DNA of 62,275 nucleotides, counting the filler, from Sphacelaria rigidula (lineage: Eukaryota): assembly GCA_964200075.2 (NCBI GenBank). It is 10 parts of 10 records of this genome, joined end to end, with 100 filler letters (N's around TTAATTAATTAA, not from the genome) between each part and the next. Parts side by side here need not be neighbours in the genome. Positions count along the whole stretch, not along the records: positions 24,953 to 31,090 come from CAXNAA020021992.1; 9 more parts are not named here. One strand, written 5' to 3'. Shown piece after piece: positions 6,639-59,962 of this stretch; the stretch's first letter is position 1; the number at the start of each line of letters is the position of its first letter. Made by a program: the position numbers and the translations under genes. Below the pieces are notes generated by a model. That model searched no databases, was not told where the DNA came from, and saw nothing but the letters and a program-made list of their open reading frames with translations.

Positions 6639-7161
6639 GTAAGATTTTGCTTGTACTTGGATCGTTGCGGAGTTGTGGGGGCCGGGGCCGGGTGCAGGCG
6701 GTTAATTCCAACTGTCGGTTAACTAAAAGTTAGAAGGTATTTTTTTTCCCAGACGTGACTACTCCAGCTGCTCCGAAAACTATTGTCTGGACACAAATTA
6801 AATAGCAGCTTGACCCTGAATATTGAAGAGGGAGGAATTTCCAACACTGCTGATTAATTCATCGATTGATTGGTTGTCGTGCATTAGCTCATTGGCTCCG
6901 ACTTCAAACGTGGTTCTAAGATGTATCCAAGGCGCCACGGCTAATGTAATTGGAAAATGGTGTCGAAATGATGCGGGTGGAAAGGGAGGACGATATCGCC
7001 GCTGCCCTCGAAGTAGTTAGATTGGTGTGTTAACGTCAAACAAAATCTCGACAAATTCGGTCCAGCTCGTGCCTGAGGACACGCACTGAGTCCCTACTAC
7101 GCCCGTTCCTCACTGCCCCACTACCCTTTATTATCTTGTGCCCCAATCCAAACCGAATCAG

Positions 7162-7297
7162 GTATCTCGCAGGAACTGCTGCCTTGTCCGAAAGAGGGAC
7201 GCGGCTACGGCCGAACTCCCCGAGGGTTTCAGGGGACACGACCGAGCACCGCCTCACGCCCCGTACTCCGACGCTGAGAGCAAGAACGGGGCTGCGG

Positions 7298-7366
<69 letters not shown>

Positions 7367-9326
7367 GAAGTGCAGACGCCAACGCCGAAATCTCCTCCGA
7401 CGATGGCAGTCAGGGCCTTGACAGGGGGGGGAGCGGCAGCAGCAGCAGCGGCAGCAGCGGCAGCGGCAGCGGCGACAACGGACGGGCAACCGGCGAAGGA
7501 AAGCGATGTAACCTGAGCGCAGCCACTAAACCTATCGCAAAGAAGAAACGAACCGACCCGGGTCCTCAGAACATTCCGAGGGTTGGCGGAGGGGCAGCGA
7601 TGCAGCAAGGCGGAGAGGCTGCAGTTCCAGATCGTCGGCATGGGAGCGTTGGGAGTGTTCAGCAAGCACAAACTGAGCAAGTTGTCGCACCGCGGGTAGC
7701 GGTACCCTCCGATCATCCCCAGGTCGAAGCCCGTGCCGCGTCGAGCGTCGTTGCCGTTGGAAACGGGCAGTATAGTGACCCCACCACTCATTCACGAGCG
7801 GTGCCGACGCCAACAACGCACGCCACCAACACCCCTCCTACCTATCACCAACCCCACCGCCAAACACAACCGCGTCGAGCTGCGGGCGGCGCGTCGCAGT
7901 CGGTCGCACCTGGCGGTGCTGCTGGTGCTGTTCCTACCGTGGCTCGGCCATGGATGGGGGTGCAATCGTCGCAGAGTCCTGCTGGATCTGGCCGACAAGG
8001 CTCGGCGTCCCTGCGGGAAGTGCCTTGGGCTGGTACTGGGGGAAGAGGGCCGGGTCAGGGTAGAAGTCAGAGCTCGTCGATGCCTAATGGTGCCGGGAAC
8101 GGCAGGGGGCATGAGCGTGGGAAGAGTGGAATTGGACGTGATGGTCAGGACAAGGCCGCCGCTAGTGGCAGCGGTAGCGGTGTTCAGGGCAAAGGGAGAG
8201 ATGCCCGAGCCTCTATCGGGGCGCCAGTGCGTGGACGTGCATCAGCGGGGCCTGAAGGATCAGGGGCACCAAGGGACCCGCGTTTGAGACAGGAAGCGCG
8301 TGCACCGGGAGGGTACACTTCGACAGCGGAGTACCTTGGATTGCGCGCGCTACTCGCACCCGCTCCGGCTTCGCCGGCCCGACCAACTCCTACTCTTGCG
8401 TCTCCGCCCGTCTCACCAACGATTATTTCCCCCAGGGACGGTGGCGGGGGAAGGAGTGGAGGACAAGACCGGGGTAGCTTTACGCCGTCTATCGACGTCG
8501 GCGGAGAGTCGGCGGTGGCGAGATCCCCGTCGGGGTTTGCGTCGCCGCAGTCGCATGCAGGGCGCGATCGAGCAAGTTCGCCTACGCGAAGATCCAGCTC
8601 CGGAACGTCTAGCCCGTCAAGTCCGAGATCTGATCGGCTCACGTCCCCGTCGCAACGAAACCGAGACCAGCAACAATACTCTTCGCCACCGCTCCGCCGA
8701 GAGCATTACCGTGAAAGTCGAGGAGCGCATCACGGTGGTGACGGGGACCTTACATCGCGTCATCATCACGGGTTCCCTGATGATGGCCGTCATCGTCGTG
8801 GGCATTCTGACGACGGCCGTCATCGCCGACACTCGGAAGATGGCCGTCACCGCGGACTCTCTGACGATGGTCGTCATCGTGTGCAATCTGAAGATGGCCG
8901 TCATCGCGGTCACTCTGATGATAGCCGTCATCGCGGTCGCCCAGACGACCGTAGGGAGAGCTATGCCGGCTACGCAGCGCGTAGCCGACAACAGGAGGAC
9001 CATTCACGTCACGGTAGCAGCGCTGTAGGCAGGAGTCACGGCGATCGTGGGACCAGTAGCCACCACGAAAGCGCCAACCGCCCGCGCGACCATGGTGAGT
9101 CGCGCCCCGTGAGCATTCATGACGCTCTCAGCAGGGAGCGGCCAGCAGGCGGTTCGCCTGGCGGGTCCTCTCACCCACCGACGTACGATGGTGCCCGGCA
9201 TTCTCAGGTGGGACCCGGTACGACCGATGAAAGACAAAGCTCGGGCGCCGAGAGCTACCGGCCGGTGTCAAGTGACGGAGTCGGCGTCACCGCTTCCGGC
9301 CGATCTGAGTGGCAAAACTCACCGAT

Positions 9327-9374
<48 letters not shown>

Positions 9375-10686
9375 GCAGCAACAACAGCATCAGCATCAAC
9401 AAGAGCATCAGCTGCAAGATCATCATCACCAGCATCTGCATCCGCACCCGTATCCGCATCATCATCAGCAACAACAACATCAGCCAGCAGCGCACCTAGT
9501 GTCCGCCCACCACGATAAATCTCAGGAGGAAGAGGAGCCACCACCGCCGCCACCCCGTCCTGAAAGACTCGAACCTGCTCCATTGCAGCAGCAGCAGCAG
9601 CAGCAGCAACAGCAACATCAACAACCATCGCAGCCAACGTGGGTACAGCAGCACCAGCAGACCCTGCAACGCCAACTGCAACAGCATGTCGCGCGGCAGC
9701 ACCAGCAACAACAGCACCTCCAACAACAGCAGGTTCAGGCTCCGGCACCGCAACAGCAGCAACACTTCCAACAGCAGCAGGTTCAGCCCCCGGCGTCGCA
9801 GCAGCAGCCACAGCACCTCCAACAACAGCAGGTGCAGACACCGGTGCCGCATCAGCAACACCTTCAGCAGCAGCAGGCTCAGACACCGGCGCCGCCATCT
9901 CCAGCTCCCGCCGCACAGCCCGCGGAAGAGGAGGTGCCCCCGCCTCCTCCCCCACGGCCACGGGATTGGTACACGGGACAGCCCGCGGCCCAGGTCCAGC
10001 AGGTCGTCGGTACCACTGCGGTTCCGCAGACTTCCCCTAATGCTGTCAGTGCTGTTGCAGCACCCCCGGGAGCATACAGTTATCCTGCCTACTCGGGATA
10101 TAATCCTCAGCCCTTGGGTGGCCCCGCGGCCAGTCAAACGGTGGTAGCGACGGGAAATCCACTCACGCAAGGCCCCGCTGCTGTGCCTGGTGCTACCGGT
10201 GCTACACCGGGCACAGGAGTTCAGCCTGCAGCAGTAGCACCGACCCCCGAACCGGCTCCTTCACCTGGTGTTGTTGCTTCTGCCGCGTTCCCTTATTCCC
10301 CCTACCCGGCATATAACCCCGCACCTACTACACCAGGAGTCGCTCCGGTAACTGCGATCGCTTCACAGATCGTTCAAGCCGCGGGCGTTGGTAATGCTGA
10401 TGCTACGGTGGGTTCTGCGGGCCTGGTGACGCAGGGTAACCCGACTCAGGTGCCCCCCCCCGTCGCCGGGTCATTGCACGGTGATGTTACTGCAGGTGCT
10501 GCCGCTGTTGCTGCCTCGATTGCTGGCGGTGCGGGTGGGGCACCACCCGTGTATGCGTTTAATCCCGTGGCGTACGCTGCGGCGGCGGCCGCCGCCGCCA
10601 CCGCCGCCTATCAGAGACAGTATTACTTGCAACAGCAGCAGTTGACCCAACAAATACAGGAACAAGCACAGGTTAACCAGTACCTG

Positions 10687-10720
<34 letters not shown>

Positions 10721-10872
10721 CACCGCAGCCGCACATGCAGCAACATTCTCAGATAAACGTTGCCTCTCCAGCGGTGGCTCCACAACAACAGAATCCGTAT
10801 GCCCCGTACCATGCGAACAACCCATATCAAGGACAACCGCCACCAGGCGGCGGGGGTGGGGATGGTCGCTGA
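7162..10872 (+). CDS. Very long terminal exon encoding a low-complexity region (polyN, G/S/R-rich, HSDDGRHRG repeats, polyQ/H, P/A/Y-rich)
   Basis: 3.7-kb stop-free frame, gaatcag| acceptor in phase 0, TGA at 10870-10872; synonymous variation between the repeats. Confidence 0.85.
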
Positions 10873-20250: not shown

Positions 20251-23200
20251 ATATGTCTTCGAGACACTTTCGGTGTGGTCGCAAAGGCTGGCGCTGGCTA
20301 GTCGTGGTTAAGCTAATCGAACAGACTCACTGCCATAGGAGCATAGACACAAGATGGTGTCAAAGGTGTCGCGCAAAAACGTCAGAAGCGATCCTGTGCA
20401 GTACAGTTTGTAAAAGAGTAACCGACGGAGGTCACGCTCACTGCACAACAAAACATCGGTGACAGTCCCGCGGCAATCCGCGATACTACTGCGCCACATT
20501 GTCTCCCACTTCACATGTACGCTATCAAAATGTGCTAGAGACCTGTCCCGTGATCTCACACAGCACACCACGTTACGAAGTGTTGACGCCATGAACTCCA
20601 AAGCCTCATCCCCTAATATTCCCCCTCAAGGCAAGTAATACCCGCCGGCTTTTTGTTCCGAAGCGGCGTCCACAACCCAGCACAACCATCCCAGCATGGT
20701 GTTCTCTCCACGGTACTCAGATAAAACGAATGAAAAACAAATTTTATGGCGAAACTAGCTTTGAACGCATTGATCAGTTTGACGAGGTGACGGTGCCTGT
20801 GGTTACTGAGGTAATTGGTTCCCATATCGCCGAGTTAGCCCTCGGTCTTAACGTACATGAAGAATAACAGGCGATCGTTTAAGATGGGGTTGAGCACAAA
20901 ACATGAGGTTCAAATGGCATACCTAAATTGCAGGTTAAATGCGAAACAGTTACGCCCAGGAAAAGCATCTCCCCCCCCCCCCCCCCCCCACAAAAAAAAA
21001 CAACACAACCCGGGGCGGGGTGGGGGGGGGGGGAGGGCAAGGGAAAAGAAAAACACGCGCGCCGNNNNNNNNNNAACAAAGGGTTGAAAAGGCATACCTA
21101 AATTGCAGGTTAAAAGCGAAACAGTTACGCCCAGGAAAAGCATCTCCCCCCCCCCCCCCCCAAAGGAAAATCTGCAGCAGTTCAGCAGGTGTGGCTAGGT
21201 GCACGGTAATGGCAAAGGAGACAACAGCCTGCCTTGCAGCGCGATGCCGCGTATAAAACCTCTGCTTGGGCCGGTCAGAGGCCAAGAGTAGATATACAAG
21301 AGACAATGTCGCAAACCATAAAACGTTTATCATATTATACTCTCGAAGCTGGAGATCCGAATACCAAAGACCAAAAACTATGGGAAGCCAGGAGAAGTGA
21401 TTTCAGGGTGCACTCAAGCACGCACAGCAAATTCTTATATGACCCGTTCCCGAAAATACATGCGAATGAAGCGCCTCCCAGCTTCCCAATACACAACATC
21501 GCAGCTCCATGATTAACCGCAATCCCGCTTCTCGATGAACCATAATCCCAGCTCCATGATATCCACTTTCTCAGCTCCGTGGCTTTGTTGCACACGATTG
21601 TGCCAGCAAGCGAATTCCACCACATTTAATACTCCGATTAACCACCGAGATTATCCGCCCCAATAATACCTGATTTCCACCGTCTTTACCTGATCCTTGA
21701 TCGAGGTACCATTCGACTCCAGGATGAACTATTTGGAACACTTGATGCGGGCGAAATCGATCACACGAAACGAATGCGGTGTACACGCGTGTCGATGACG
21801 ATATCACCAGAGGAGTAACGGCGGAGAGGAGGCCCCTCGCCGGTGTCCTTTGCGTGACCTCGTTCGGCGATTCCCAATCGCTGGAGAGACTGGCATCATG
21901 TATTAAAATATTGCCAACCTGAGTCCTGGTGCACATGAACTTGGACTAATTCGGGTACATAACAGTTGAGAAACCACTCTGATGTGGGGGTAATCGTCTA
22001 CACAATTCAGGTGTGCGTAAACGAAAGTCAGCAGCCTGGTTCAGGCACAGAACAGTGGCGTGAAGGGCTTTCTATAATTATTTGATCATACCCTGCGTAT
22101 TCTTTCAGTTTCCTTCAATCAATCTCACTCTATCCCACAATATCTCGCACTCAATCTCTCTCACTCAATACCTCTCACACGCACTCACCACACACACTTC
22201 TGCAAACCTCCAGAGCAAGGCACGTTGACATCGGGCAACCCAATCAGACCGAACGATGGTGGGCGGTGCGCAGCTCGGTTGTCTGTGCGTGACATGTATT
22301 GTACTCGCATAACCTACGCCATTGACAACACTCCGCAACCTCAACATAGTTGATGTCAACTTTTTCCGCACTATAGCTTGCATCAATCTCGTTCATGACT
22401 GAGCGTGAGCACATTCGAGTAGCCCCCCTGCTTACGGCTCAGTCGTGAGCTGAAAGCCCATACTGTTGAAAACTGGAAAAAAAAGTACCAATTTGACACA
22501 AAATAAAAATACCTTGAGCCATGCTCGAAACCCACAAATATATATTAAAAAGCAAAATTTGCCCAGAAAATAGTACCTCCAGTATTTTACGCCCCCCCCA
22601 AACCTAATTTAATCTCCCCTTAGCGGGAATGTTTTCCACATACATCTCAATTCAAAATGGGCTTACATAATCAAATCCTTCGATCCCCGGACTTTCATGG
22701 CTATCGCGCTTGTTTGGAAACATTTTCATCCACTCCAAAAACAAAACGCAGACATAGAAATAAACCAAGCTACATTGGCATCTCGGTGATACTATAATCT
22801 GAGGTTTATACGATCAAACTCGAACTGAACTACGATCGAACATATATGATACAGTTCAAAAGGGTCTGGCCGAGATTTTCATGTAAAATAAAAGTCTTGA
22901 GCCTGAATGTTCAAACGTTCTAGACCCACGCCGGTATTTCTACGCAGAATGATCCTCAACAAATCCTAGAATGCCCAGTGAAGCTCACCAATCATCAACT
23001 TCTGCAAGTCTGTTGTCTTATCAAATAAATCACCAATACCAGGCAGTAGTCGTATAGATGCACGCTCATTTATGACCGATAGGTGTAAAATCTTCAAATG
23101 AAATAATGCAAAGTATAAACCTATTCTCGATATAGGGCCCCTCGGCCCAGCGTACAGCTGCTTCACGCTTGACACTGTCTCCTGTCTGCCCGAGAAACAG

Positions 23201-24952
23201 CAGTTTGCAACTTATCGTCTTTGGCATACCGCGAATCAAGTCCTGTACGTCTACGTGTAAACAGGGATGGTAGTGGCTGGGACTAGTGCGGGACGACCTA
23301 GCGGGAATTTGCTGGGAAACGGCTCGCGTCTCAGCGCCGGCTTGCTTCGGGCCCTTGCGAATGTAGGGCGATGACCATAACACGAACACGATTTATGCTT
23401 CAAAACAACTTTACGCTTCCGTGCAACGACACATCACCATACCACGGGTGCGTGCGGCAGACCTTCATTTGCCACTTCTAACAAGGGCCCAGCCCATAGA
23501 CTACTCCGGTTTCACCCCAAACCGGCGCAATCTAAGACCGCAACGTCACAAACACCAAAATGCATTGAAATTGGAAGAGTCCTGGGCGCAGGGCAACCCA
23601 TGAAAGAAAGTTCATACAAGAAGAGTTATTACTACACATTCCCCACTATCCAGAGCACCTCCTTTGAAACGCTTCCATTATCATGTTACCAGCACATACC
23701 TGATTTGCCATGTGCCGGCAGGCGAGATATTGCTGCACAGCCCCCCAGAGAACGTCGAGGTACCGAGGGGTGCCATCTCTTCTTGTCTGTGACGCTGACC
23801 AATGCAAATATCGATTCCTCTTTGCCTCTCTTTTTGGCCAAGACGCGCCTCTGTGCGCTACAGAATACGTCGTCGAATAGCAGAGCGACGTTCGCGTCAT
23901 CGCTACTGTTCTCTCTCACACACATGCCAGCAAGGATGGTGTTTCGGCAGTAACAAGATCCAATTGCAACTTGGGGGGGTATTGCCGTCATCATTGATTG
24001 TACTCGATATCTGCACCTGTACTTGCCCGACAAGGAGAAGAGCGTACCACACCCTGTGGGAATGCATGAGAGATCAAACACTTGTGGAGACCTTGTGATG
24101 CGGAGTGACAAACGATACCTCTGGTGGTGACGAAACTATTGCTGGCGTGACCCAACATAGGGTTGCCGCCATGCTGGAATCTGGAGCACTCGCTGCGGGG
24201 GTGTGGATGTCTTTCCCAACTTTGCATGTGAGGAGGCTACTCATGACAAGCTGGGGCGAGATATATGGTTTCATGAGGAATAAGGGTGCCCGATGATAGA
24301 CCACTTGCCATTGCATTTGTAATCCACACCATCAACCGGTGACCGCAAACATCTTGCCTGAAAATAGCTTTCAAGCAGCGCTGGCAGCAGTACGTCAGAC
24401 AAGCCACGACATGGCTAGCTTCTGCTGCTGACGGTCTGTACAATAACGTAGCATCGAGATTGACAATGGTTGCACAAATAAACAGGTCCGGTTTTCAAAA
24501 TTCATTCCACAGGAGACACTGCCTACGATAGCCCTTTTCCAAGAAGTGGCTGGTTTGGGGAGGCAAAATCTACACGTAAATCGAAAATAAAATCCGAGCA
24601 CAACGAGAAGATGGGAATCCGTACGCTTAGGTTCCGTTTCGCCAATATCGCTCATATGAGGCGCGTCATGCAGCCTGAAACCAAACATCAGGCGCTGTAG
24701 GAGTATTTTCTTCGTGAAAATTCTCAGCTGTTTTGTTATTTTTTTTGGGGGGGGGTATCGTAGAAAGTGTCAGGATCAAAACGCCTCTCAAAACAGCGAA
24801 TCATCTATATTGAGGATGGTGCTTTTTGTTGAGGATGAAACACAGTCGGAAANNNNNNNNNNNNNNNNNNNNNNNNNNNNNNNNNNNNNNNNNNNNTTAA
24901 TTAATTAANNNNNNNNNNNNNNNNNNNNNNNNNNNNNNNNNNNNNNNNNNNN

Positions 24953-25100
24953 AGAAGGAAGGTGGGGTATTAAAAACAAATAAAAAAAAAAGCTCCTGTG
25001 TTGACTTTCCTTCTGTGACCCCGGCTGATGCGCCCACATATACCGAAAGGTGTAGACTGGCGCCCAGAATAAATGGGACGACAACACACAACACACACCA
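24953..25100 (+). mobile_element. SINE family A, 3' part
   Basis: Matches 1150-1300 (CTGTGACCCCGGCTGATGCGCCCACATA...ACAC tail). Confidence 0.85.
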
Positions 25101-25310
25101 CAAGTGGTAGTGGCATGATCACCTCTCAGGGTGACCTCCACCCACCCTATACAACTGTAAGGGGCCGTACTGTACTCTGTGGTGTCTTGTACTGATATGT
25201 GCGTGGCAACAACCCGGCGGGCCCAGATCATCCCGTTTCTATGTAGGCGTTGTATCTTCCATGAGAAAATTATTCCGTCTGCCCCTCGCCCGCCCCTCTA
25301 GGCCTCTTTA

Positions 25311-25602
25311 CCAACTGGTCGGAAAAAATGGTTGACGCGAATAATGAGGTGCCTCCTACACACCTCGAACCCTAACCCTGACCACGACGAAGACTCGGGC
25401 GAGGGGGGTGCAAAGTGCTCCTTAGGCACAGTGTGGGTTTCCAGAGCTCAAATAGATGCCTTTTAGCCGATTTTGGAACAAAACACGTTCTGGACAAGCT
25501 GGGTCTACTGCTCACCTGTATCTGTTGGTGGTTTCATCCATCGCCCCGACTAACACTAAAACGGGTATGTTATAATTTCAACCATTTTTTCCGACCAGTT
25601 GG
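25311..25602. mobile_element. Tc1/mariner-type MITE
   Basis: Perfect TIR CCAACTGGTCGGAAAAAATGGTTGA, flanked by TA on both sides. Confidence 0.8.
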
Positions 25603-26701
25603 TAACGTCTGTTGCCCCACTCTCCGACAAGCCAAGTCAACAAAAGGTCACGTGCACGACTCGGCGCTATGAGCGTTGACTACTTCAGACCCCGAGGAGT
25701 TTGTGTTCCGAGAATCCGGCATGACGATTCCGCGGATATTTGGAGGATGACAAATCTATGCCTTGATGGCCATTTCAGAAAGCCCGTGGGCGCTAGATCA
25801 GAGAGAGCTACAAACTCTTTGTTTTGACAGTATGGTATGGTAAGCGTAGCTGTCTATGTCCCGATTGAGCGAGCGGGTTGGAGTCGCGTCTACACCACAC
25901 AGCATAGCACACGGAGAGGTATCGGCAGAAGGCTGCTCCGACACAACGGCCGCACCCGCAATACCTTCATACCCCGACATTGCTATCCTGTGTTCTGGAC
26001 TGTATAATGTACCGGCTACAATAATATACGTAGGACACGGATATGTGTGAATTAACCCTGTGACAGCAAGCGTAGGTCATCTGCTGAACTGGCTTCAATT
26101 CCAGTTGGAAAAAGTATGCATGGTGCAGATAAACTACCCTCCCGGCCAACGACCCGGCGGGCCCAGAGCCCCCGTTTCGATTCGATCGATGCATTTGTCA
26201 CCGGAACGACTATTCCGAACCTTCCCCCCCAATTCTTATGCAAAAATAAATTCATCTGCACTACTGGACGCTATGAGGGTCAAAGGACCTGGGATAAAAG
26301 GAAAACTGGTACTGTACTGTGCCGTTCAGGGTTCCATCTTGGTGCAGTTTGGTCGACCCGGCGATCGACCGCACTATCGCGGGACCACGACTGTACTGCG
26401 CACGTCGCTGGCACAATGGCATCTCTAGTACATCTTATACTTGGCACTCATGTACCCTTCCTCACACAAAAGGATGCGGCCGAGCTCGAGTCGAGATGCC
26501 TACGTAGACTACAGGGGATGAAATGAATTGATCTCTTCAGATCACGTACTCGTCGCAAGGAAGGGGAGGGATTGCATGTGTGAGAGAACCTTGAGAGAAC
26601 GCAAACATAAAAACTGATGTCACAAAATCTAGAATAGAAATGTTTGCATCACATCCCATACATCACAACCGACGCTTCGTGGCCCTTCGTTCCATACACA
26701 C

Positions 26702-27188
26702 CTTGGCCGACGGGATTGTCCACCAGCCGATACATATCCTGTATCCTCCTCCGATAGGCACATCCCACGCTATTCTCCGAGGTCGGCGTGGTCAAACACA
26801 ACACCTTCGCCAGCTCACGAACCGCAGCTGACGCCACACTCCCATTACCACCCCCCTCATGGCCGCAGCCTTCAAACAGTAGCACCGCAGTTACTGCACC
26901 CGCCGCCGCCGCCGCCACCGCCGCTGCCGCTGTCGCCACTACAGAAAACTCCGCCTTCGATTTCCACGAATCCCCTAGGCCCGAACCCCATACCTTAAGT
27001 TGCTTTTTTACAGGGGCACTACTGTCTATGCGGATCCCTGTAGAGGCAGTGCGGGAACGCTGGAGAATCAATGATTCGCTAATGCGCATCTGCTTATTGC
27101 AAATACTTACGGCGGCGAGAGTTTTAGAAGAAGTAAGTCCTGTGTGTAGCACATGGCGGGGACCGCGCCGGCTTGCGATTGTGAGCAT
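26702..27188 (-). CDS. First exon of a probable Ser/Thr kinase with an organellar leader
   Basis: ATG at 27188; R/S/T-rich acid-poor N-terminus; Ala-rich hydrophobic stretch; ends IQDMYRLVDNPVGQG|gtgtgt, which looks like the start of kinase subdomain I. Later exons not found. Confidence 0.5.
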
Positions 27189-27583
27189 GACACTCGCAGC
27201 TCTCGGGGCACCCCGTTCGTGTGTACGAACGCTGTATTGGATAATTGTTTTTTGTCATTTATTTCGTTTTCGTAGTTGCTTTTACTTTTATATCAGACCC
27301 GGAGTCACACGATGGATGTGAAGATATATACGCGCCAAAACTTGGCCACTCGGTGTCCGACACTGTGCGCATCACTCCACTTTGGCATGGAGATAGTCTT
27401 GGGTACTGTGTTTTAGCTAGAGATGAGCGACGGATGCTAAAAAGTAAACAAGAATCTCGATACATAATGATAGATTATGACCGTATTCAGAATACTTTGA
27501 TCTTCCTGGTATCCACATCACCTGTCCAGCCGGGCTGTGTACTGTCCGGCACTATCCTCTCTTCACACGTTGAGGCACAGATT

Positions 27584-27881
27584 ATGCCACAATGCCGCCC
27601 CACTGTTGTCGACAATCAAAATGCAACATATATACACGCATTTTCTCTACACCATCTATCCTGTCCAGCTTTATTGACACTGTTACTGTTGTCGATGTTG
27701 ATGCGGTCACCATGCAACACCTGTCACGCGACAACTCTCGTTGCCGCGCGGTTCGACGGGGGTGTTGTGATCGGCGCAGACTCGAGAACAAGTCAGGGCA
27801 GCTTCGTGGCAAACCGACTAACGGACAAAATCAGCTTGGTATATCCAGGGATATTTCTCGCTAGATCAGGCAGCTCGGCCG
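27584..27881 (+). CDS. 20S proteasome beta1 (PSMB6/PRE3)-like Ntn hydrolase, first exon, with hydrophobic leader
   Basis: [34 protein letters not shown]...ARSGSSA|gtgagt carries Thr1 (27731), Asp17, Lys33, Arg45 and Gly47. The start codon is inferred. Confidence 0.88.
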
Positions 27882-28187
27882 GTGAGTGAGAGAGAAGTTC
27901 TCGTGAGGTGTTGGTGTGCTGCCGATGCTACAATAGACAGACCTCTCCGGTGGGGATTCAGCCTACTATTATGCCGACTACTATACCATCATGGTGTTGT
28001 ACATGATCCCATGGCGGTTTTCGCTCGTGTTGTGTTGAAGAAAATGGGGACCGTGGATAAAGTACGGTAGCTGGTACAAGGAAGCCGGTCCGCACTGTAA
28101 TTATGTATTAGTATGACTGCACATCTCTACGTTGCATTACCCCGACAAATCTGTTTCAAATATTCAAGGGCAAAGAAGGAGATGCAT

Positions 28188-30323
28188 CAAGGGGCCCGAT
28201 GTAAGGCGGTGTGAATAAGGCGCTAGACCCGATATAAGGCGGCTGAAATCTGCGCGCACAACTCAGACTCGGAACAACGTGGCCACCGCCTTATTCCGGG
28301 CCGGGCCCTGTACAAGGCGGTAATTCTCTGTCTCAAAACCGATATAAGGCGGTAAACATCTTCGCATCAATACAATACGCCCTCGATGAAGCACCTGTAG
28401 TACCTCTCTGACACAAGGGACCCAAGCGAGCGAACAAGCAACGTGTCTATTACGTGATGATATATGATGTCTCTGAAGAGTGAGGTAGGATGCTATCACT
28501 CGACGCTTGATCGAAGAAAAGCCTAAGCTCGAGTAAGAGGGTAATGAAATGTGACTGTCATTTGAGGGTCCAAAGTAATGCTCGAGACGAGTTCAGTCTA
28601 CACTGTGAAATTCAAAAAGGGTTGAACTGTACCAGAAGAATCCAAGCTTTAGTGGAAAGCTGTAGTGAAGTAATCGGGTGATGCTATCACTTGTGGATTG
28701 GCATGTTCGAGAAAATTGCTCGTTAAAGTATAGACTACGCTGTGCGGAAGTTGAAATATGAGAAAATTTTGTCAAAACAGGGCTCACGTTTGAGACAGGG
28801 CGTAGCGGAGTGCAATACTGTACTGTCGTTTTTGAGAGTTGGTGACATACGAGGGGGCGTGCTTGCAATACGCGCAACCTGATGGTAAATTGGTCGTTTT
28901 TAGTCACGAAGTATACACATGGAGCTGCATGTCGTGTAAACTGACCGTGGGTGCGGGTTGTTCGGAGGCAGATGTTCTTACTTTTGCATGTAATAACTCA
29001 AGGGTAGGTCGAGTAGAGTATACTCAATACTCAGTATTTTTGAAGAGTCATAATTTTAGTACTCAAATTTTGAGTAGAGTACTGAAGGTCGTACTCAACC
29101 TACTCGATTATTCGAGTAGAGTATTTGAGATCATACTCAATCTACTCGAAATTTGAGTAGAGTATTGAGGTCATACTCAAGTGATACTCTATACTCAAGT
29201 ATTACTGACAGTGCTTACTCAAAATTTGAATAGAGTATCTCAGGTCGTACTCGATCTACTCAAAATTCGAGTGGAGTATCGGAGATTGTACTCAACGTAC
29301 TCAAAATTTTAGTAGAGTCTTGAGGTCATACTCAAGTGATACTCTATACTCAAGTATTACTGAGAGTGCTTACTCAATATTTGAGTAGAGTTTTGGAGGT
29401 CGTACTCGACCTACTCAAAAGTACATACTCTACTCGACCTACCCTTGTAATAATTCTCCCCATGTGAGCTAAAATACGGGCAGGTACTGTCCCTCCGCCT
29501 TACTCCCAACTCTCCCAACTCTTCGGCCCTCTCGAGAGGGCAGCGGGGGAGTCTGCCAATCTCGAAGCCGCGTTCCTCCCTCAGAAGAAGGCCAAAATGG
29601 CTACGATCAAAGCTCACGCATCTAAACCCGTGCGGCAGTCGGATATGACGGAGTTCATGTAGGCAAATGGATGGATTCTTGGAGCCGTTGTCTTGCATAG
29701 AGGAAGGGTTACTGCAACGAGTATGAAATACTTTTGATCTACAAGCGCCGCGGGAAGCAGAGCTTAACCCGTATCCAAGGGCCAAGCTCAATGGACGCAG
29801 CTCGAATGATTTTTTCTTCGGTGCTACAGTTTACTTTATAGCCATGACGTGGATCCATGTCGGCTGTTTTTTTCAGTTCTGTTCTTCACGAAGGTATCAT
29901 TATCGTTGTTCCTCTCATCAGCACCCAAGAGTAAGTGTTGGTTCGGACAAGTTAGTCTTGTACGGTATCGCATGTAATGTACCGTACAAACACTGCCAGC
30001 AGGATCGTTTGCATCAGGTTTCAAGTATATACCGCCGCAGAAATTATCAGGTTCAAACAGTTGGTATTCAGCCTCCTTCTACCCGCGTGAATACACGATG
30101 AGTGGCCATAGTCTATTCTGTACCCAACGACGTGCCGTGGGGATATATCCCCTGCACTGGCAACCTCTCCTGGCTTTTGCTGACCTTGAATAAGGCGGTC
30201 ACTGCCTTAATGATATCAGACCCTGAATAAGGCGGCGAATAATTTCAGGAATAAGGCGGCAGCCCGATATAAGGCAGTAACCCTCCCCACGCACACCACC
30301 GCCCTATATCGGGCCCCCTACTG
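28188..30323. mobile_element. Probable non-autonomous TIR transposon with ATAAGGCGG subterminal repeats
   Basis: Left end GGGGCCCGATGTAAGGCGGTG is inverted against right end CACCGCCCTATATCGGGCCCC; clusters of TAAGGCGG at 28200-28355 and 30190-30280. Confidence 0.6.
28999..29447. mobile_element. hAT-type MITE with an internal ~40-bp tandem array
   Basis: Perfect 23-bp TIR CAAGGGTAGGTCGAGTAGAGTAT; 8-bp TSD TAATAACT/TAATAATT. Confidence 0.9.
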
Positions 30324-30390
30324 TGTGCCTTTTTGGTTTTGTCCATTTCAAGGTACAGTGCCCGGCGAGTTTTTACTCCTATACGTGTGA

Positions 30391-30748
30391 ATGTGTTGCC
30401 ATCCTATCTATTCTGGACGACAGGCCTCACGTTTTGGTACAGTATACGTGGGCACATCAGTTGGGGTCACACAGGAGAAAGGTCAACACAGTTTTTGTTG
30501 TTGTTGTTGTTGGCATTGTGTTTTAGTACTCCACCTTGCTCCTGAGGTGCTTGCCTTCCTCTTTATCTCGAGAATGGCTCAGCGGTCCCTTTTCCTCGTC
30601 GACCGTGAAGTAATGTGTTCCCACGACATGGTCGCTCTCCGCTGTTGGGTATCATGTGAGGAAAAATCCCGGATCGTGTGACTTTACCGATATTCGAATC
30701 AGCGTCCCAACCGTCAGAAGGTTGCAAATGAGCCACCGGAGCGACCGT
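30391..30748 (-). mobile_element. SINE family A, diverged full-length copy
   Basis: Reverse complement aligns with 934-1305, including the head (CCGGTGGCTCA, GATTCGAAT). Confidence 0.8.
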
Positions 30749-31519
30749 AGGAGTGGAGAGAAGAAAATGCCGTGTTGATTCGAGTCCAGGAATTCCGAAA
30801 TTCACAGCATTCTTGAACCAGCAGGGTTCACCACTTGTTCGATTAGAACCTTCCCGGAATTTTATGACGTGATTTTGAGTCGAAACACCGATATTCAGAT
30901 CTCAGTGGCACTGACAGCCCTAACTGCACCTATCGTGCTCAGAACGCGTTTTCATCAAAATCGGCGCCTGTCTGCCAACGCTACACTTTGCCTAGGGAAC
31001 GCTTCGCCCACCCCCCTAACGGTAAAATGGTCAGTAGTTCGAAGGGAAAGAGTGAAGTGCTAGTCGAGCACTACCGTAAACTAGGAACACNNNNNNNNNN
31101 NNNNNNNNNNNNNNNNNNNNNNNNNNNNNNNNNNTTAATTAATTAANNNNNNNNNNNNNNNNNNNNNNNNNNNNNNNNNNNNNNNNNNNNAATGTTTTTT
31201 TCATGAGTTTAAAATACCCTAACTCATGAAAAAAAAACATTTTGGTACCGCAGTCATTTTTTTTATGCCCTATGCATTGTCCATACCAAATTTCAGGGTC
31301 CACCTCTAAATGTATAAAAGAGGATGGGCCTTCGAACTTCAAATCCGCCTCTAGGCTGGCCCAGCTCGTAAACCTCTTCGTCATATCCTGCCCCCGGGAC
31401 TCGTGTCACCATCCGCACACAGCGGAAAATATTGCACTTAAAACTGTGATCTGTGCCGTTACCTAATGCGAGCAACGATGACCGGTCCTCATGTACCTTG
31501 GCTATCGATCTCATTGAGC

Positions 31520-40334: not shown

Positions 40335-42288
40335 ACTTTTTTTTTTTCAGATAGTGCATTGGAGGTCTCCCTCAGTGTTGAACGAAGCTGTTTTCGATGA
40401 TTTGTTGAAGGCGGAAACGCAGCGATTAGTAATCATGCTGTTCGATCATTGGCGGGCAAAGAAACGCTGAGGGCGGGGACGGGGGCGGGGGGGGTAAGGG
40501 GAGAACCAAGGTGATGATGGATATGTCGTTGCGGCTTTGTGAAACGTACTTTGAGTGCTTCTTTGTTTCCGTTTGGTGATGGGGGTGAGGGTTAGGAAAA
40601 TGTTTTACTTCCAGACGCGATACGATTCCACCCAAAGTCGAGTTTTGTGCTGCCATTGTAGAATGAGACGCGACAAGGCTGGCTGGCTGCCGAAACGATG
40701 AGTGTGCTCGAGATATGGTCTGCCATCCTCATTTTTCAACTTTTCACGAGCAAGTGCGAGTTCGGTTCCACTGCGTGCTGGTACGAGGCAGACGCCAAGG
40801 CATTTCTACCCTTATCGGCCCTCATACCTGTGTTATGGGTCTTGAGATGAACAGGATGAAGACTAGAATAAAATGGGATACAGGAGATTACACGCTACGA
40901 TATGTTTGTTGGAGTCAAAAGCAACAGCAACAGTGCATGGTTTTAGACGTGTTGATAGTGCAGTGCAGTGCACTGTCATCATGCCATGGACATTGATGTA
41001 TTGTATGCTCCAGCCGGGGTCCATGGTTTTCGTTGCCAGTACCGGCTGCGGTGATCCGTAGCTAATGAGTGAGCGGCTGCGTCCCATAATAGACAGAGCG
41101 ACGAACCTGCTGTCTCGTCCATGTCTCCCTACTCTTTCTCGAAAGTGAAATCTCCGTTGCGTCGGCTGGGGGATCGGGTGCCACAAGACGATTCATCCTT
41201 ATTTTTTTGTTGAGATTTGTTTTTGTACCGCGCGACGTTATTCATGTTGTCTTTCCCGTTGTTTTTCGTTGCCCTTCCTCCGTTGTGGTCTCTTCTCCGT
41301 CTTAGAATATATACGAGTGTTGGCCGGGGAACCCGCTGATTACACTGTTGTAAGCCTTTTATTGTTAAAAGGGGGTGTCGAGGTTGTTTTCTCAGGAAAA
41401 CACATACATGAATACTCCCCCCCTCACCGCCCCCCCCGCGCTCGCCGCCGTGTAATATTTTCTCAGAAGACATGTAACTGTCAGCTCCAACATTGCGCCT
41501 GAGAAGCAGACAGATGACCGTGTGCGATAAGCTCCCGCTCACTGTCCTACACTTTTGCGTCTCCTCTTGTCTCTGTCCCTGTAACGTTCATGCGTTAACT
41601 GTCTGTGCGTGATTTTTTACACATGAATTGTTGCGAAGTGTTTCCTAAGCTATTAGTAGCCAGTCCGGTTGAGGTTCGTCCGATATAACATTCTTTCTAC
41701 ACAGCAGCATCTTCGGCTGCGTCAGCCCTCGTTAGAGCAGTACGGCACAAAGATCATCTGCATCGTGGGATTACCAGATCATCAGCAGCACATGAAGTAG
41801 AAAGTCCGTTGGTGGTCCTTATCCTTGTGCTGACCGCGGGTCGGGTGACAGGGGAACGTGTGATGTGGAACAACGCGACAAAAGACGCTAAAGAATCAAA
41901 TTTCAAAATTATTTTTGACAGGATCGGACCCGTTACCCTGACCCGTGCTACGACCGTTTTACATGTACAAACTGTGGCCCACCTATCCACCCACGACTAC
42001 GGTGGCCTAGCGCGGGGAGCGTACTCGACTCGGTGTCCGCCTGTCGGCGGACACTCGAGGATCAAGAAAAACGATCGTTGCCCTCAAGCATACTTACCGC
42101 GTGTCTTTTTGCTAGCCAAGTTTGGCGGGAAATCACCGTGTCAACCAAGGAAGCCTTATTTACAGTCAGTTGCTGCCACCTCGGAAGGGCAGCAGGTGTA
42201 TTGCTCTCTCCCTCGAGGACAGCAGCAGCACTCAAGTAAGAGTGGCGTCAACTTCAGCGAGTGTTGGTCCTTGTTGGGGTGGGGGTTT

Positions 42289-42878
42289 ATGTCGAGGACA
42301 AACCAAGGCACTATTGCGAACGGTGCGGCAGCGGGATCGGCGGCGTTGCCTGCACCCTGTATAGACGACTTCGACGTGGGACAGGAGCTCGGCAGGGGCG
42401 GCTTCGCAGTAGTCTATCGCGCCCGCGTACGAGTGTCAGGGCTGGAGGTCGCCCTGAAGGTGGTGGACAAACATCGAGCATGTGAGCTAGCAGCCGGCGG
42501 TGGAGGCGGGGGGGGTTCAAGCGGGACAGCTGATAGTGGAGTCGGAGCAGCGTGTGCGCGTATCGCCAGCGAAGTGCGGTTGCATTGGGGCCTGAAACAC
42601 CCGTCTATAGTGGAACTCTTCGACTTTTTCGAAGATGACCGCTTTGTGTACATGGTGCTGGAGCTGTGCGGGGGCGGCGACCTCTATAGGATGTTGCGCA
42701 TGCGGGGACGGTTGCGAGAGGGAGAGGCCGCAGGTTACATGGGGCAGCTACTCGCAGGATTGGCTTATCTGCATGAGCGGGGCATCATGCATCGGGACCT
42801 GAAGTTATCGAACTTGCTGTTGTCGCAGGATGGACACAGGCTGAGGATTGCTGATTTTGGACTTGCGGTGGCCTTAAA
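42289..42878 (+). CDS. PLK4: Polo-like kinase, PLK4/SAK-like, first exon (subdomains I-VII)
   Basis: IDDFDVGQELGRGGFAVVYRA, GLEVALKVVDK, EVRLHWGLKHPSIVELFDFFED, HRDLKLSNLLL, IADFGLA, then |gtgagt. Kinase identity is near certain; the subfamily is less so. Confidence 0.75.
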
Positions 42879-43304
42879 GTGAGTAGTGCGGGAGGCAAGT
42901 CAAAGGTTGCTCTTGCTTTCTTGCTTATCTTGTTGGATCATTGTCTGCACGTCATTGAGAGAGCACCATCTGATCAGTGTCACCGGAGGGATCGATCTCC
43001 GATGACCAATCGCTTACTTCAAAGGTGGCTGTGTAGAAAGTTTCCTCTGACCTGCCTATATGGGGGTGTTATCGGGCGTGTACACAGCAATTGTGTTTCA
43101 TGTGGTCCAGTCCAGTCCAGTACAACAGTGAACGACGAAGCAGCACATTGTGGTGGCGAAGTTTCAGGAGTTATGGTGCACTTTTTGGTGCTGGATTCAT
43201 TTGTGTCACATCATGAGAACCTAGTCTTCGTGGTGGGGTTTTGGAGAGCTCGAGCCACGTTGTCCGTCGTCCTCGGTCAACGTTCCGATTTCCCAATGCG
43301 GAAG

Positions 43305-46373: not shown

Positions 46374-49300
46374 ATGGCTCAAGCGACAACGATGCCGCTG
46401 GTTTGGGATAAACCGTTAAAAACGTCAAAGTATGACGAGCGTAAGCAACAGAAACAGCTGCCGACTTCGCGAGCGTTGTTCACTCGCGTATGTTACAATT
46501 ATAGCGACCATGGGCATATTATAAGATTTTGCCCCGAGCCTCGCGCTAAAGGCGCTGCGCAAGGAAATGCGCGAGATGGGTCAAGATCTCGAGGCGATCG
46601 TTATGGCGGACAAGGTATGAGCAACCAGAGATACGGGTGCAGAGACAGGGGCCAAAAACGAAACCAAGCGACGGAGAAGTGTAATTCCGCCGCTACTGTA
46701 TCCCTAAATGCGTTTTCAAGTGATGACGCTAGATCTCTAGGTTCGTCTGTGTCGGGGCGGCTAACATATGTGGGAGGAGATAATACTTTGGTGGGGAGTG
46801 CTGGAGCGGAAGGCTCGCAACCCATAGGCCCGGCAGGATTTGTGTCGGGTGTATCTTCCACTGTTGCGACGAATACAAAAGCATCGATGTCAAGTGCTGG
46901 AGCGCTGCCTTGGCGTCAAGTGACTCTAGGTACTAACCAGAGTTTTTCTTCGGCAGGGTTGTGCCTGTCGACCGCAGCGCAGAATGTTTGCGCGCTGATC
47001 TATCTATATCCGGCTCTATTGGTTCTTTTATGGCTCGAGTTTTTCTCGACTCTGGATCAGCAATCACATCAATAAGTGTGGGGTTGCTGCAACAGCTGTC
47101 TTTACAGTTTGGGGACGCCCAGCTAAAGCAACCATTTGATAATGGGCCGCAAATGGCACAGAGCGCCACGGGTGCGCCCGTGACTATTTCTCATAAAACG
47201 GTGCCTATTGCTGTAAGCGTGCGAACGCCGTGGGGTGCTGTGGAGATGTCACCAATCACTTTCGCGGTCATACCTGGCAACGACAACGTGGTGTTGTTTG
47301 GCATGGCGACTATGAAGGAACTCGGGGTAGATTTGTATCCGCTGGCTTTGGAAAAGTTACGCCCGCGTGCTGTGCCGGTGCAGATCGGCATTAACAACCC
47401 TGGTTATCTTCCGGCTAGGCGGGTGATCGTCCCTGAGTGGTCATTTCAAAGTGAGAGTCAGAAGGATACAGGTGGAGAGGAAGAGGAAGCCCCTGAGAGT
47501 GGAGCCGTACCGCCTATGAGGGTGCAGCCACAGTCACAGGCGCGGCTGCGAAGGCCCAGCCCAATTGCAACGATCCGGTGAAGGCCGGGTGGCTAGCTTC
47601 GTGCATTGCAGTTTTGATGGCGTTTGGGTTACTGTACTGCAGTTTGCAGTCAAGCTTGAAAAGAGCGGCGATGGAAATGCCGGAAAATTTCTGCTCGCGA
47701 GGGGTGAGCAAATCCAAGGTGGGGGCGCACATTCCCCCTCCCCACGAGGATATGGTGCATGGTGGGGATAAGGTGCATGGTACTCGCCCGGAGGAGGTGA
47801 TAGAATTCAATTTCCTCAGCGATGGAGCGAGTGGTCAGCTGGAAAATGTTGGGTTGGACGACGGAGATCCGACCCAAGATCATTTGGCGATCAAAGACGA
47901 TGTGAGCAACTTCGTGTGGTTGGAGCCCGCAAAGTCTAGTATGGAGGCGAAGAAGGTGGAGCATTTTCTGACATGGTTCAAAGCCAAAGCGATGGGATCG
48001 CCGGAGGTATGGGTCGGCGATACGGGATGGCATGTGAAGAATTGTGCGGTGAGAGCGTTTAATAAGGCGTTGATGGATCGTAGTTTTCGGATGTTCAACT
48101 TGCCGTTGTCCCGTCGTAAATGTAAGCGAATGATGCGTGATATTGCTCATATGATGTCAGGTCAGGTGCTTAATGAGGATGGTGTGGTGCCCTCGAGAGC
48201 TGTTGCTATGCGGGACTGTATGGTTGCTCCCGTTCCACCTCTCGTTTCGCCAAAAAAGCGTCTGAAACAGGAGAAATCGTCGATGCGCAAGCTTCTGTGA
48301 AGGCAGAGTGTTTGTTGCATTGGTTCGGCGGTAAGGATATGCTGTTTGGTGGCATGTTGAGATTCACCATGGGGGTGCTAGAGGTGGCTGCTAGGAGCTA
48401 CCGTACGACAGGAATTGTTGCTCTACGGTGTGCAGAAGGTGGTGGTTTCAGTGCTACTACTTCGCAGGAGCGGACTGAAAGCCTACAAAGCTGGGATCAC
48501 CTGAGATGAGTGATATAGTGGTGAGCTCCGGATTGGATATTGTTGAGGAGCAAGTACTTGTAAGGGTACTTGTTGAGCATGAGACAACACAAGATGACTG
48601 GTATTTCCGAATCGTTTTCTGACGATTAGAGGGTGTTATAGTGTGCTTTTTGGGTTATATTTGTGTTGCTGTTCGCGCATGAAGCACGACAGTAGAGCGG
48701 GTGTGCTCGTGTTGTGTTCGCTGGAAAATGCCAGTGTACGCGTGGAATTTAGTATGCGTGTGTGTGCTGCTCTGAATAGCATGCATGATGCATGGTTTGT
48801 GCAAGACGGGTTGCATTGCGGGTCCTGAGTCAAATATTGGCATGGATGTACGAATTTTTGTATGCTGAGTGGGATCTTGGCATACATGCGTGGAATTTTC
48901 GCTCGAATGCTACTGATGAGCATGGTGTCTGATGACCGTCAGGGTGGGGCAGTTAACAAAATGCTGCTGAATAATGAGCGAAATGTGTCGGCTCGTACTG
49001 ACTGTAGGAGATGGTGACTGCTGCTGATGACGTGAAAATGAGCTGAAATTACGAAATGCGTAGGCTCGTTGTCTGTGAGCAGAGATCACACGAGTTTTCG
49101 TGTGTTTGAGGATCAAAACGAGTATGCACGTATGAAAACTGATCCTTGCCCGTGGCACGTTTTTGGCGATACTGTTTAAGGTATCGCGCCAGGTGAGGTT
49201 GTTCAACTTGATTCTTGTACGTCGGAAGTAGCGAACTTGCCGGGACTAACTTCCTGATGGTTTGCTGTATGTTTGTTATCCCGGATGATTTGTCAAATTT

Positions 49301-59500: not shown

Positions 59501-59654
59501 TGATTGTCACCATGTCACCGGTGTCGAACTTTTCCCCCCAAGCACCAGGGGTGGCGACAACAGCGAAAGCATCGGCGGGGGTATCACTGAGATTCGGGTT
59601 TGCGGCAATTTCGGGATCATGATCTGCTGTCAAGTGTTCACGCCTAGCAGACAT
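56575..59654 (-). CDS. Large exon encoding four Tudor/chromo-barrel (SH3-fold)-like repeats and a basic tail
   Basis: Over 3 kb open frame; four ~54-aa repeats at 59366-59528, 58498-58658, 57997-58157 and 57372-57533; ctcag|gtcaga donor; ATG at 59654 inferred. Confidence 0.8.
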
Positions 59655-59962
59655 TGATTGACATACGTGATAAAATTTCAGGGGATACCACAAAGCGATG
59701 GTTCCAGGGTGGAGATTGCTGATCGAGATATGAGTACCAGCCGGAGTTAAGTTGTGACTGTGACGCAAGGCCCGCTTCGACGATTTCGAAAGTTCAAATT
59801 CAAATTGTACGATCATGTTGCTGTGTTGTCGTAAATTTCAGACCCACGGTCGATGGAAAATAACTGCAAGAAGGTATGTTTACTTTTTCTGTACTGCCTT
59901 GGTGTTTGGTGTTGTTCGTGTTGTTGACACGTGCGGCGCGTATCATCAAGTGAAACTCGACC

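Follow-up and report, generated by a model that had tools for sequence, protein, structure and literature searches.

A leader-bearing proteasome β1 paralog of brown algae whose catalytic threonine may be exposed by signal peptidase

How is the catalytic threonine of a proteasome β subunit exposed when it is directly preceded by alanine at the end of a hydrophobic leader? This question is raised by a locus of the brown alga Sphacelaria rigidula. We have analyzed a window of 62,275 nucleotides (nt), filler included, that comprises ten parts of ten records of the GenBank assembly GCA_964200075.2 joined end to end. Positions 27584-27881 on the plus strand, within the part taken from CAXNAA020021992.1, are exon 1 of a gene for a proteasome β1 (PSMB6-type) subunit. 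To our knowledge, every characterized active β subunit of eukaryotes frees its own Thr1 by self-cleavage after Gly(−1), late in assembly; this serves the proteasome as a safety catch. A first-pass annotation of the window suggested that signal peptidase could expose Thr1 directly in this case. The explanation that we favor, to which as a whole we give an even chance, is that the exon is the expressed first exon of a brown-algal leader-bearing β1 subunit, that its Thr1 would be bared by signal peptidase, and that the protein most likely belongs to a periplastid particle.

The reading frame runs from the ATG at 27584 to 27880, translating into 99 residues with no frameshift or stop, and base 27881 opens codon 100. 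Residue Thr50 of the translation is the catalytic Thr1. The 49 residues of the encoded leader comprise an n-part of 28 residues, a hydrophobic core of 12 and a polar c-part of nine (coordinates of all features are collected in Table 1). In a hydropathy scan the core ends nine residues ahead of Thr1, and the c-part places Cys at −3 and Ala at −1. By the hand rule for a signal peptide (a core of about 7-15 residues and small uncharged residues at −3 and −1) both core and c-part have the expected form. The n-part departs from the short, positively charged type, with one Arg, one Asp and three His among its 28 residues. The first-pass annotation had described a hydrophobic core with small −3 and −1 residues (C-H-A) before Thr1, and had cautioned that the core begins about 28 residues after the first ATG. 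Both statements are correct, and the ATG in question is the first one in the transcripts described below. A second ATG, 8 nt past the start, opens an overlapping frame of 90 codons in another reading frame (27592-27861, plus strand).

Four read sets were compared with the N-free stretch 24953-31090. X1 is DNA-like, giving a contig of 2666 nt that is colinear over 25588-28253 at a flat depth of 28.4. X6, X7 and X8 are termed RNA-like on account of exon-limited contigs that halt at the splice donor, the runs not being recorded as RNA. Their contigs have lengths of 1126, 1351 and 1116 nt respectively. Each begins 21-55 nt 5' of the ATG, follows the genome with 0 differing letters, leaves the genomic match exactly at 27881 and then continues for ~780-1000 nt that do not lie within 24953-31090. 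The RNA-like depth is 120-153 on the exon compared with 0-3 in its flanks. This is the pattern that a spliced mRNA gives, and the donor is used. The genomic open reading frames of relatives continue past the same codon (SGSSAG...). Since the contigs cover the leader and stop at the donor, the leader is part of the transcript. The first-pass annotation had named transcripts that exclude the leader as evidence against its proposal; in all three runs the contig on the exon includes it. With the lengths that they have, the contigs would accommodate a complete mRNA of ~270 codons.

Exon 1 is the only exon of the gene that we could recognize in the window. In the 34 kb that follow, a tblastn search with five full-length relatives recovered no other exon. 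A hidden Markov model built from four full-length brown-algal proteins, run against 2699 stop-to-stop frames of the window, returned exon 1 at E = 1.5e-27 and a next-best value of 0.54. A degenerate pattern designed to detect the beginning of exon 2 (...D-T-Q-F-V plus acceptor) had 0 matches in the window, where 2.4 would be expected by chance. The nine N blocks of ~100 nt, each made up of 44 N, 12 bases and 44 N and recurring at intervals of ~6238 bases over 6139-56138 (e.g. 24853-24952 and 31091-31190), look like inserted masks and not like assembly gaps. These blocks and one N run of 10 nt (21065-21074) could conceal at most small exon pieces. Given that no further exon was recovered, and that repeats, weak retroelement traces and an unrelated kinase frame were found instead, either intron 1 is very long or the assembly is broken there.

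The start of the mature domain is of the proteasome β type: residues 48-99 match Pfam family PF00227 with 37.8 bits (cut-off 22.4; E = 2e-9). Numbering from Thr1 along the translation, Asp17, Arg19, Lys33, Arg45 and Gly47 are all in place, as the first-pass annotation had asserted for all of these except Arg19. Thr1, Asp17 and Lys33, the N-terminal nucleophile set of MEROPS family T1, occupy the same alignment columns. Arg45, in the S1 pocket, marks the β1 type; the best PDB matches of an ortholog are PSMB6 and Pre3, and in the trees described below it falls among β1-type proteins. Over the exon, tblastn gives 86-92% identity with full-length proteins of brown algae. Mature PSMB6 of human and cattle can be aligned with the Ectocarpus ortholog without a single gap, Thr1 corresponding to residue 23 of the ortholog (E = 1e-56 to 7e-58), and the predicted fold of the ortholog has a mean pLDDT (predicted local distance difference test) of 90.8. 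In an alignment of 36 rows the full-length leader-bearing proteins keep Thr1, Asp17, Arg19, Lys33, Arg45 and Gly47, together with the Gly-Ser-Gly serine, Asp166 and Ser169; Ser129, Asp166 and Ser169 are present in the full-length orthologs P0009, P0004, P0006 and P0010. A catalytically intact β1 paralog of the PSMB6/Pre3 type is the best explanation of the encoded protein, as a part of the overall reading to which we have given an even chance.

Two further observations concern the mature domain. Arg, Lys or His occupies position 7 in 14 of the 19 leader-bearing rows that could be read, compared with Glu in nine of 16 canonical rows, possibly a charge adaptation at the new N-terminus. A conserved Cys pair (residues 161 and 174 of P0009) was considered as a sign of an oxidizing compartment and dropped, as it is also found in the canonical animal β1 P0021.

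Relatives of the protein and their phylogeny

The best protein matches come from Ectocarpus sp. CCAP 1310/34, Discosporangium, two EukProt models and several genomic contigs. The leader-bearing family was found in Ectocarpus spp., Discosporangium, Choristocarpus and Hapterophycus. In each of the 14 brown-alga-like relatives whose N-terminus could be read, a hydrophobic leader ends in Ala immediately ahead of Thr1, and the mature protein starts Thr-Thr or Thr-Ser. Their junctions include ...AAAGQVDA↓TT (Ectocarpus) and ...WSYPGCASA↓TS (Discosporangium), and in other members ...AVRWTATGA↓TT, ...FIWTGVGA↓TT, ...LLSGGSYA↓TT and ...LLLGISGA↓TT, where the arrow marks the boundary with Thr1. The layout, repeated in all 14, is not due to chance. 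Orthologs lacking the leader, a second kind of evidence that would have spoken against the proposal, were not encountered among them.

Residue −1 was tabulated for the 113 β1-type proteins in which a pattern located Thr1. Gly occupies it in 87 of them, Ala in 15, Gln in five, Ser in three and Lys in one, and it is absent from two; in the Gln cases the gene models seem to have read through an intron acceptor. Every one of the 15 proteins with Ala(−1) bears a leader. They are the 14 brown-alga-like rows, two of which are isoforms of one gene, and the metagenomic protein P0054. The Gly(−1) of self-activation is replaced by Ala in the window protein as it is in these 14 relatives. At −3 all the Ala(−1) rows have one of A, V, S and T, and the window has Cys, while residue −2 is unconstrained (D, G, Y, S, E, R, H). 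Constraint at −3 and −1 with freedom at −2 is the rule of signal peptidase and not that of a self-cleavage site.

The hydrophobic run ends 0-9 residues before Thr1 across the family, and the cores of the leader-bearing proteins have lengths of 10-16 residues. The window leader is longer than the others: Met lies 49 residues ahead of Thr1, compared with 15-38 in the relatives, whose n-parts are short and often contain Arg. A mitochondrial presequence was considered for the Arg-rich leaders (MLFASRRRPAAS...) and rejected as the main reading, because the cores have 10-16 residues and the leaders of P0042 and P0054 clearly resemble signal peptides. At the other end of the protein, the brown-algal C-termini (P0009, P0004, P0006 and P0010) are Gly-rich (...DGGG, ...GGGG), a tail not found in canonical β1, and no KDEL-type end was seen in them.

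The phylogeny of the family was examined using a protein search of 1.84 billion representatives, which gave 3019 matches at E values up to 0.001. Rows were retained where Thr1 was located by the pattern and the mature part had 175-290 residues, leaving 95, or 89 after removal of cluster-mates. Trees were built on the mature domains with the leaders excluded. A quick tree of the 89 rows divides 26 from 63 with a support of 97 in the Shimodaira-Hasegawa-like approximate likelihood ratio test (SH-aLRT). A crude hydrophobicity threshold classes 21 of the 26 clade rows as leader-bearing; the remaining five, P0174 among them, include three whose N-termini are hydrophobic on visual inspection and one that is truncated N-terminally. 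A more careful tree of 68 rows, from which long-branch rows (P0174 included) and near-duplicates were omitted, divides 25 from 43 with support of 100 by ultrafast bootstrap and 99 by SH-aLRT. Judged from the mature domains, the leader-bearing β1 paralogs form an old clade apart from cytosolic β1. A search with P0011, supposedly a canonical stramenopile β1, was uninformative on brown algae, its best 120 matches being mostly PSMB6 of crustaceans and fish.

The clade includes the diatoms Nitzschia inconspicua and Entomoneis paludosa, and the tie to diatom periplastid proteasome subunits that the first-pass annotation drew is therefore real at the level of phylogeny. When the tree is rooted on canonical β1 the pair P0054 and P0062 branches first, followed by the pair P0187 and P0033 and then by an ochrophyte part. 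The latter consists of Phaeothamnion plus the brown algae (93/70) beside a group of 16 rows (100/100) that contains the two diatoms. The Nitzschia and Entomoneis proteins have a signal peptide followed by a spacer of 29 residues, rich in Ser, Pro and Thr, that ends IDMG↓TT or VDLG↓TT. In the diatom group the spacers range over 6-29 residues and end (I/V)D(M/L)G↓TT, with 6-11 residues in the further members; that of Phaeothamnion has 16 residues and ends VSMG↓TT. Spacer lengths within the whole clade are thus 29, 16, 11, 9, 6 and 0 residues. The lines with none are the brown algae, P0054/P0062 and P0187/P0033. In P0187 and P0033 the leader abuts Thr1 and Gly(−1) is retained. P0062, a leader-bearing β1 with the junction ...KCADS↓TT from the EukProt transcriptome of the foraminifer Bolivina argentea, derives either from the foraminifer or from algal material in the sample. 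The rooted tree requires that the Gly-ended propeptide was either lost three times independently or gained twice. The brown algae have lost the spacer. The C-termini of the diatom group (P0189, P0153, P0044, P0176, P0168, P0070 and P0083) share a motif L-x-G-F-(A/V/Q) near the end that was not found in canonical β1.

Maturation and destination

Exposure of Thr1 by signal peptidase is the best reading of the leader, because the −3/−1 pattern lies exactly at Thr1 and because Ala stands in place of Gly(−1) in 15 of 15 family members, the window protein included. In this respect the first-pass proposal has been strengthened, and we consider such maturation somewhat better than an even prospect. 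The leader would direct the nascent chain into the lumen of the endoplasmic reticulum (ER) or the chloroplast ER, where signal peptidase would cut between Ala and Thr. That would give a free Thr1 amine with no self-cleavage, beyond the reach of cytosolic N-acetylation. The subunit would then most likely assemble with further leader-bearing 20S subunits into a periplastid particle that lacks a cap, like that of diatoms; the main alternative is that it would stay in the ER or secretory lumen. Since signal peptidase itself would make the free Thr1, the Gly-ended propeptide would have become dispensable and then been lost. The layout of the sequence and its conservation, the transcription of the leader, the splice, the clade and the catalytic residues are observed; entry into the ER, the cleavage site, the destination and the partners are what we infer in this scheme.

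Three known systems may be compared with it. The Thr1 of HslV (ClpQ) is exposed by removal of methionine. This is the closest analogy that we have, with Thr1 bared by a general processing enzyme instead of by self-cleavage. HslV however belongs to a prokaryote-type family with HslU as its partner, whereas the window protein is a true eukaryotic β1 by sequence and tree. It resembles cytosolic β1 (PSMB6/Pre3) in its fold and in all its active-site residues, including the β1-specific Arg45, at an identity of 40-50%. The cytosolic subunit has a non-hydrophobic propeptide that ends in Gly(−1) and is self-cleaved at assembly, as described by Huber et al. 2016 (PMC4792962), in contrast to the hydrophobic leader and Ala(−1) found here; position 7 differs too, as noted above. 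According to the same account self-cleavage attacks the carbonyl of Gly(−1), whose positioning is decisive and involves a sharp turn in β1, and residue −2 of canonical β1 must fit the S1 pocket in which it sits. It describes propeptides as shielding Thr1 from irreversible N-acetylation, and deletion of the β1 propeptide as well tolerated.

The third system is that of the diatoms. The account of Phaeodactylum tricornutum by Moog et al. 2011 (PMC3101018) gives alpha2, two alpha7, β2, β3, β6 and β7 as predicted periplastid 20S subunits, with no 19S among its predictions, and places alpha7-1/2, β2, β6 and β7 in the periplastid compartment by green fluorescent protein fusion. Normally cytosolic proteins with a signal peptide were counted there as candidates whatever the length of the transit-peptide-like part. 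Ten of the 40 candidate leaders tested went to the secretory pathway, and the authors stress that the transit-peptide-like part is decisive. Cavalier-Smith 2017 (PMC5756292) speaks of a degenerate periplastid proteasome of heterokonts. The Sphacelaria protein is likewise a nucleus-encoded extra copy of a 20S subunit with a putative signal peptide in a heterokont alga, and belongs to the same β1 paralog clade as the diatom proteins. Unlike the diatom members, with their spacers of 6-29 residues ending in Gly, the brown-algal members have no spacer and Ala(−1). The leader-bearing clade probably corresponds to the Phaeodactylum periplastid subunits.

Where would the protein go? Its homology with the diatom proteins and the gradual shrinkage of the spacer (from 29 to 6 to 0 residues) favor the periplastid compartment. 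Periplastid targeting in heterokonts requires a non-aromatic +1 residue, which Thr provides, but also a transit-peptide-like stretch, which is missing. The first-pass annotation had noted that there is little room for such a segment, and indeed the conserved domain starts at +1. The complete lack of that part, along with the absence of any Lys before Lys33, favors the ER or secretory lumen. If signal peptidase does mature Thr1, we would lean slightly toward the periplastid compartment over a lumenal or secreted location.

The protein might then act outside any periplastid particle, as a threonine protease that is ER-lumenal, vacuolar or secreted, either alone or as a homo-oligomer, having followed the default secretory route. 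We think this unlikely, though the lack of any spacer residue ahead of Thr1 in all 15 family members would suit it, as would the ten secretory diatom leaders mentioned above and the Gly-rich, KDEL-free C-termini of the brown-algal proteins. The diatom members of the clade carry bipartite leaders, and Arg45 and the complete active site are conserved, as they are in subunits that form part of a ring. The gradual shrinkage of the spacer within the clade, down to six residues, also argues the other way, suggesting that targeting may already involve the N-terminus of the mature protein. Moreover, we know of no single eukaryotic β subunit that is active alone. The assembly-independent ER or secreted protease put forward by the first-pass annotation was not supported by the analysis, homology to a clade with bipartite leaders in diatoms speaking at least equally for a periplastid particle. 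A broader proposal is that an old eukaryotic β1 lineage shifted the activation of Thr1 from self-cleavage to signal peptidase, yielding a threonine protease matured in the endomembrane system that may act there or beyond the cell, outside the classical 20S particle; this is conceivable, and on present evidence we doubt it.

Another possibility is that signal peptidase cuts further upstream, or that the leader remains as a membrane anchor, Thr1 being freed by self-cleavage between Ala and Thr. Several relatives have small-residue sites 5-8 residues upstream (TAAA↓V, TAAA↓F and VAAA↓G, the arrow here marking the potential cut), the sister Phaeothamnion and the diatoms still use a Gly-ended propeptide, and P0187 and P0033 keep Gly(−1) despite leaders that abut Thr1. 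Yet the Gly present in 87 of 113 β1-type proteins is Ala in every brown-alga-like member, and the positioning of that Gly is described as decisive for self-cleavage (PMC4792962). The −3 and −1 residues obey the rule of signal peptidase in 15 of 15, and −2 is free; in canonical β1 residue −2 has to fit the S1 pocket. We therefore regard this alternative as improbable. It is more improbable still that the protein is an alternative cytosolic form of β1 whose propeptide happens to be unusually hydrophobic, or that the window holds a truncated non-functional fragment: exon 1 does stand alone, the 34 kb beyond it having repeats, traces of retroelements and an unrelated kinase frame, and its n-part is atypical, but RNA-like contigs of 1116-1351 nt extend ~780-1000 nt past the donor as would fit an mRNA of ~270 codons, the intact exon has 86-92% identity to full-length proteins, cores such as CLLFLLVHCFLLVLLL and LFPLLLLLASIA in the relatives are not propeptide-like, and the clade stands apart from cytosolic β1 at 100/99 support.

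Several points weigh against the explanation that we favor, maturation by signal peptidase followed by entry into a periplastid particle. A transit-peptide-like spacer is missing, and residues 1-33 of the mature domain, with two Asp and no Lys before Lys33, are unlike the periplastid leaders of diatoms. The n-part of the window protein is unusually long and barely basic, and an Arg lies right behind the core. Cleavage between Ala and Thr is assigned by a hand rule, and several relatives have alternative upstream sites (e.g. ..TAAA↓VRW.. and ..TAAA↓FIW..). The tree groups were defined only after the first tree had been seen. The β6 of Moog et al. may be of another type than PSMB6, and so lie outside the leader-bearing clade. 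Ser129, Asp166 and Ser169 are unseen for S. rigidula, as the later exons lie outside the window. Lastly, the partial ortholog P0020 of Choristocarpus tenellus has Asn for Thr1 and Leu for Arg19, indicating that catalysis is not kept everywhere. P0020 also has DAQ for DTQ and Val in the R-D-G motif, where its relative Discosporangium keeps these residues, and is possibly an inactive member or the result of an error in the gene model.

Surroundings of the exon

The features of the exon and its immediate flanks are listed in Table 1.

Table 1. Exon 1 of the β1 gene and the sequences that flank it
Feature	Position	Strand	Evidence
5' untranslated part, no ATG inside	27529-27583	+	RNA-like contigs start at 27538 (X6), 27529 (X7) and 27563 (X8)
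Start codon and 28-residue n-part	27584-27667	+	Translation; first ATG of the RNA-like contigs
Hydrophobic core, 12 residues	27668-27703	+	Uncharged run, mean Kyte-Doolittle value 2.56
c-part RSPCNTCHA, proposed signal-peptidase site after 27730	27704-27730	+	Cys(−3) and Ala(−1); hand rule
Start of mature β1, Thr1-Ala50 and first base of codon 51	27731-27881	+	PF00227; identity to brown-algal proteins
Splice donor GTGAGT of intron 1, phase 1	27882-27887	+	3/3 RNA-like runs; open reading frames of relatives
Beginning of intron 1, repeat-rich	27888-31090	+	No further exon matched; tandem array 29060-29420

Tandem and dispersed repeats occur in the 34 kb downstream of exon 1. The array at 29060-29420 has units of ~41 and 155 nt (TACTCAAAATTTGAGTAGAGTA...). 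Very high depth was observed in all four read sets at 28848-29462, 30283-30692 and 30898-31090, indicating that the array is a genome-wide repeat. The kinase frame (41689-42879) lies on the plus strand, as does the β1 exon, within what would be intron 1 of the gene; it is uninterrupted over 397 residues and matches PF00069 at E = 4.5e-38. The retroelement traces at 46937-48297 (plus strand) are weak, a gag-type aspartyl protease at E = 1.5e-4, below its curated cut-off, and an integrase core at E = 0.011. Two long open frames of 1260 residues (7090-10869, plus strand) and 1130 residues (56448-59837, minus strand) have no Pfam match even at E = 1. Upstream of the exon there is a separate transcript in the region 25093-27221, seen as RNA-like contigs of ~3.0 kb that end at 27160-27221. 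It contains a joint from 25093 to 26699 with the ends CA..CA, which is not that of a standard intron.

Implications for proteasomes of heterokont algae

We found no published description of a leader abutting Thr1 in proteasome subunits of algae. Leader-bearing 20S subunits of heterokonts are known; the probable novelty is activation of a proteasome threonine by signal peptidase. If true, a conserved and expressed β1 paralog whose Thr1 is bared in this way would be a different solution to the same activation problem. Exposure by signal peptidase would fit the role of the β1 propeptide as a shield against N-acetylation described by Huber et al. (PMC4792962). The family would also offer a way to approach the periplastid proteasome of heterokont algae, a particle without a cap that is poorly understood. 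For brown algae, the question that it raises is whether the particle is still periplastid, or whether a proteasome-type protease has moved to the ER or secretory lumen.

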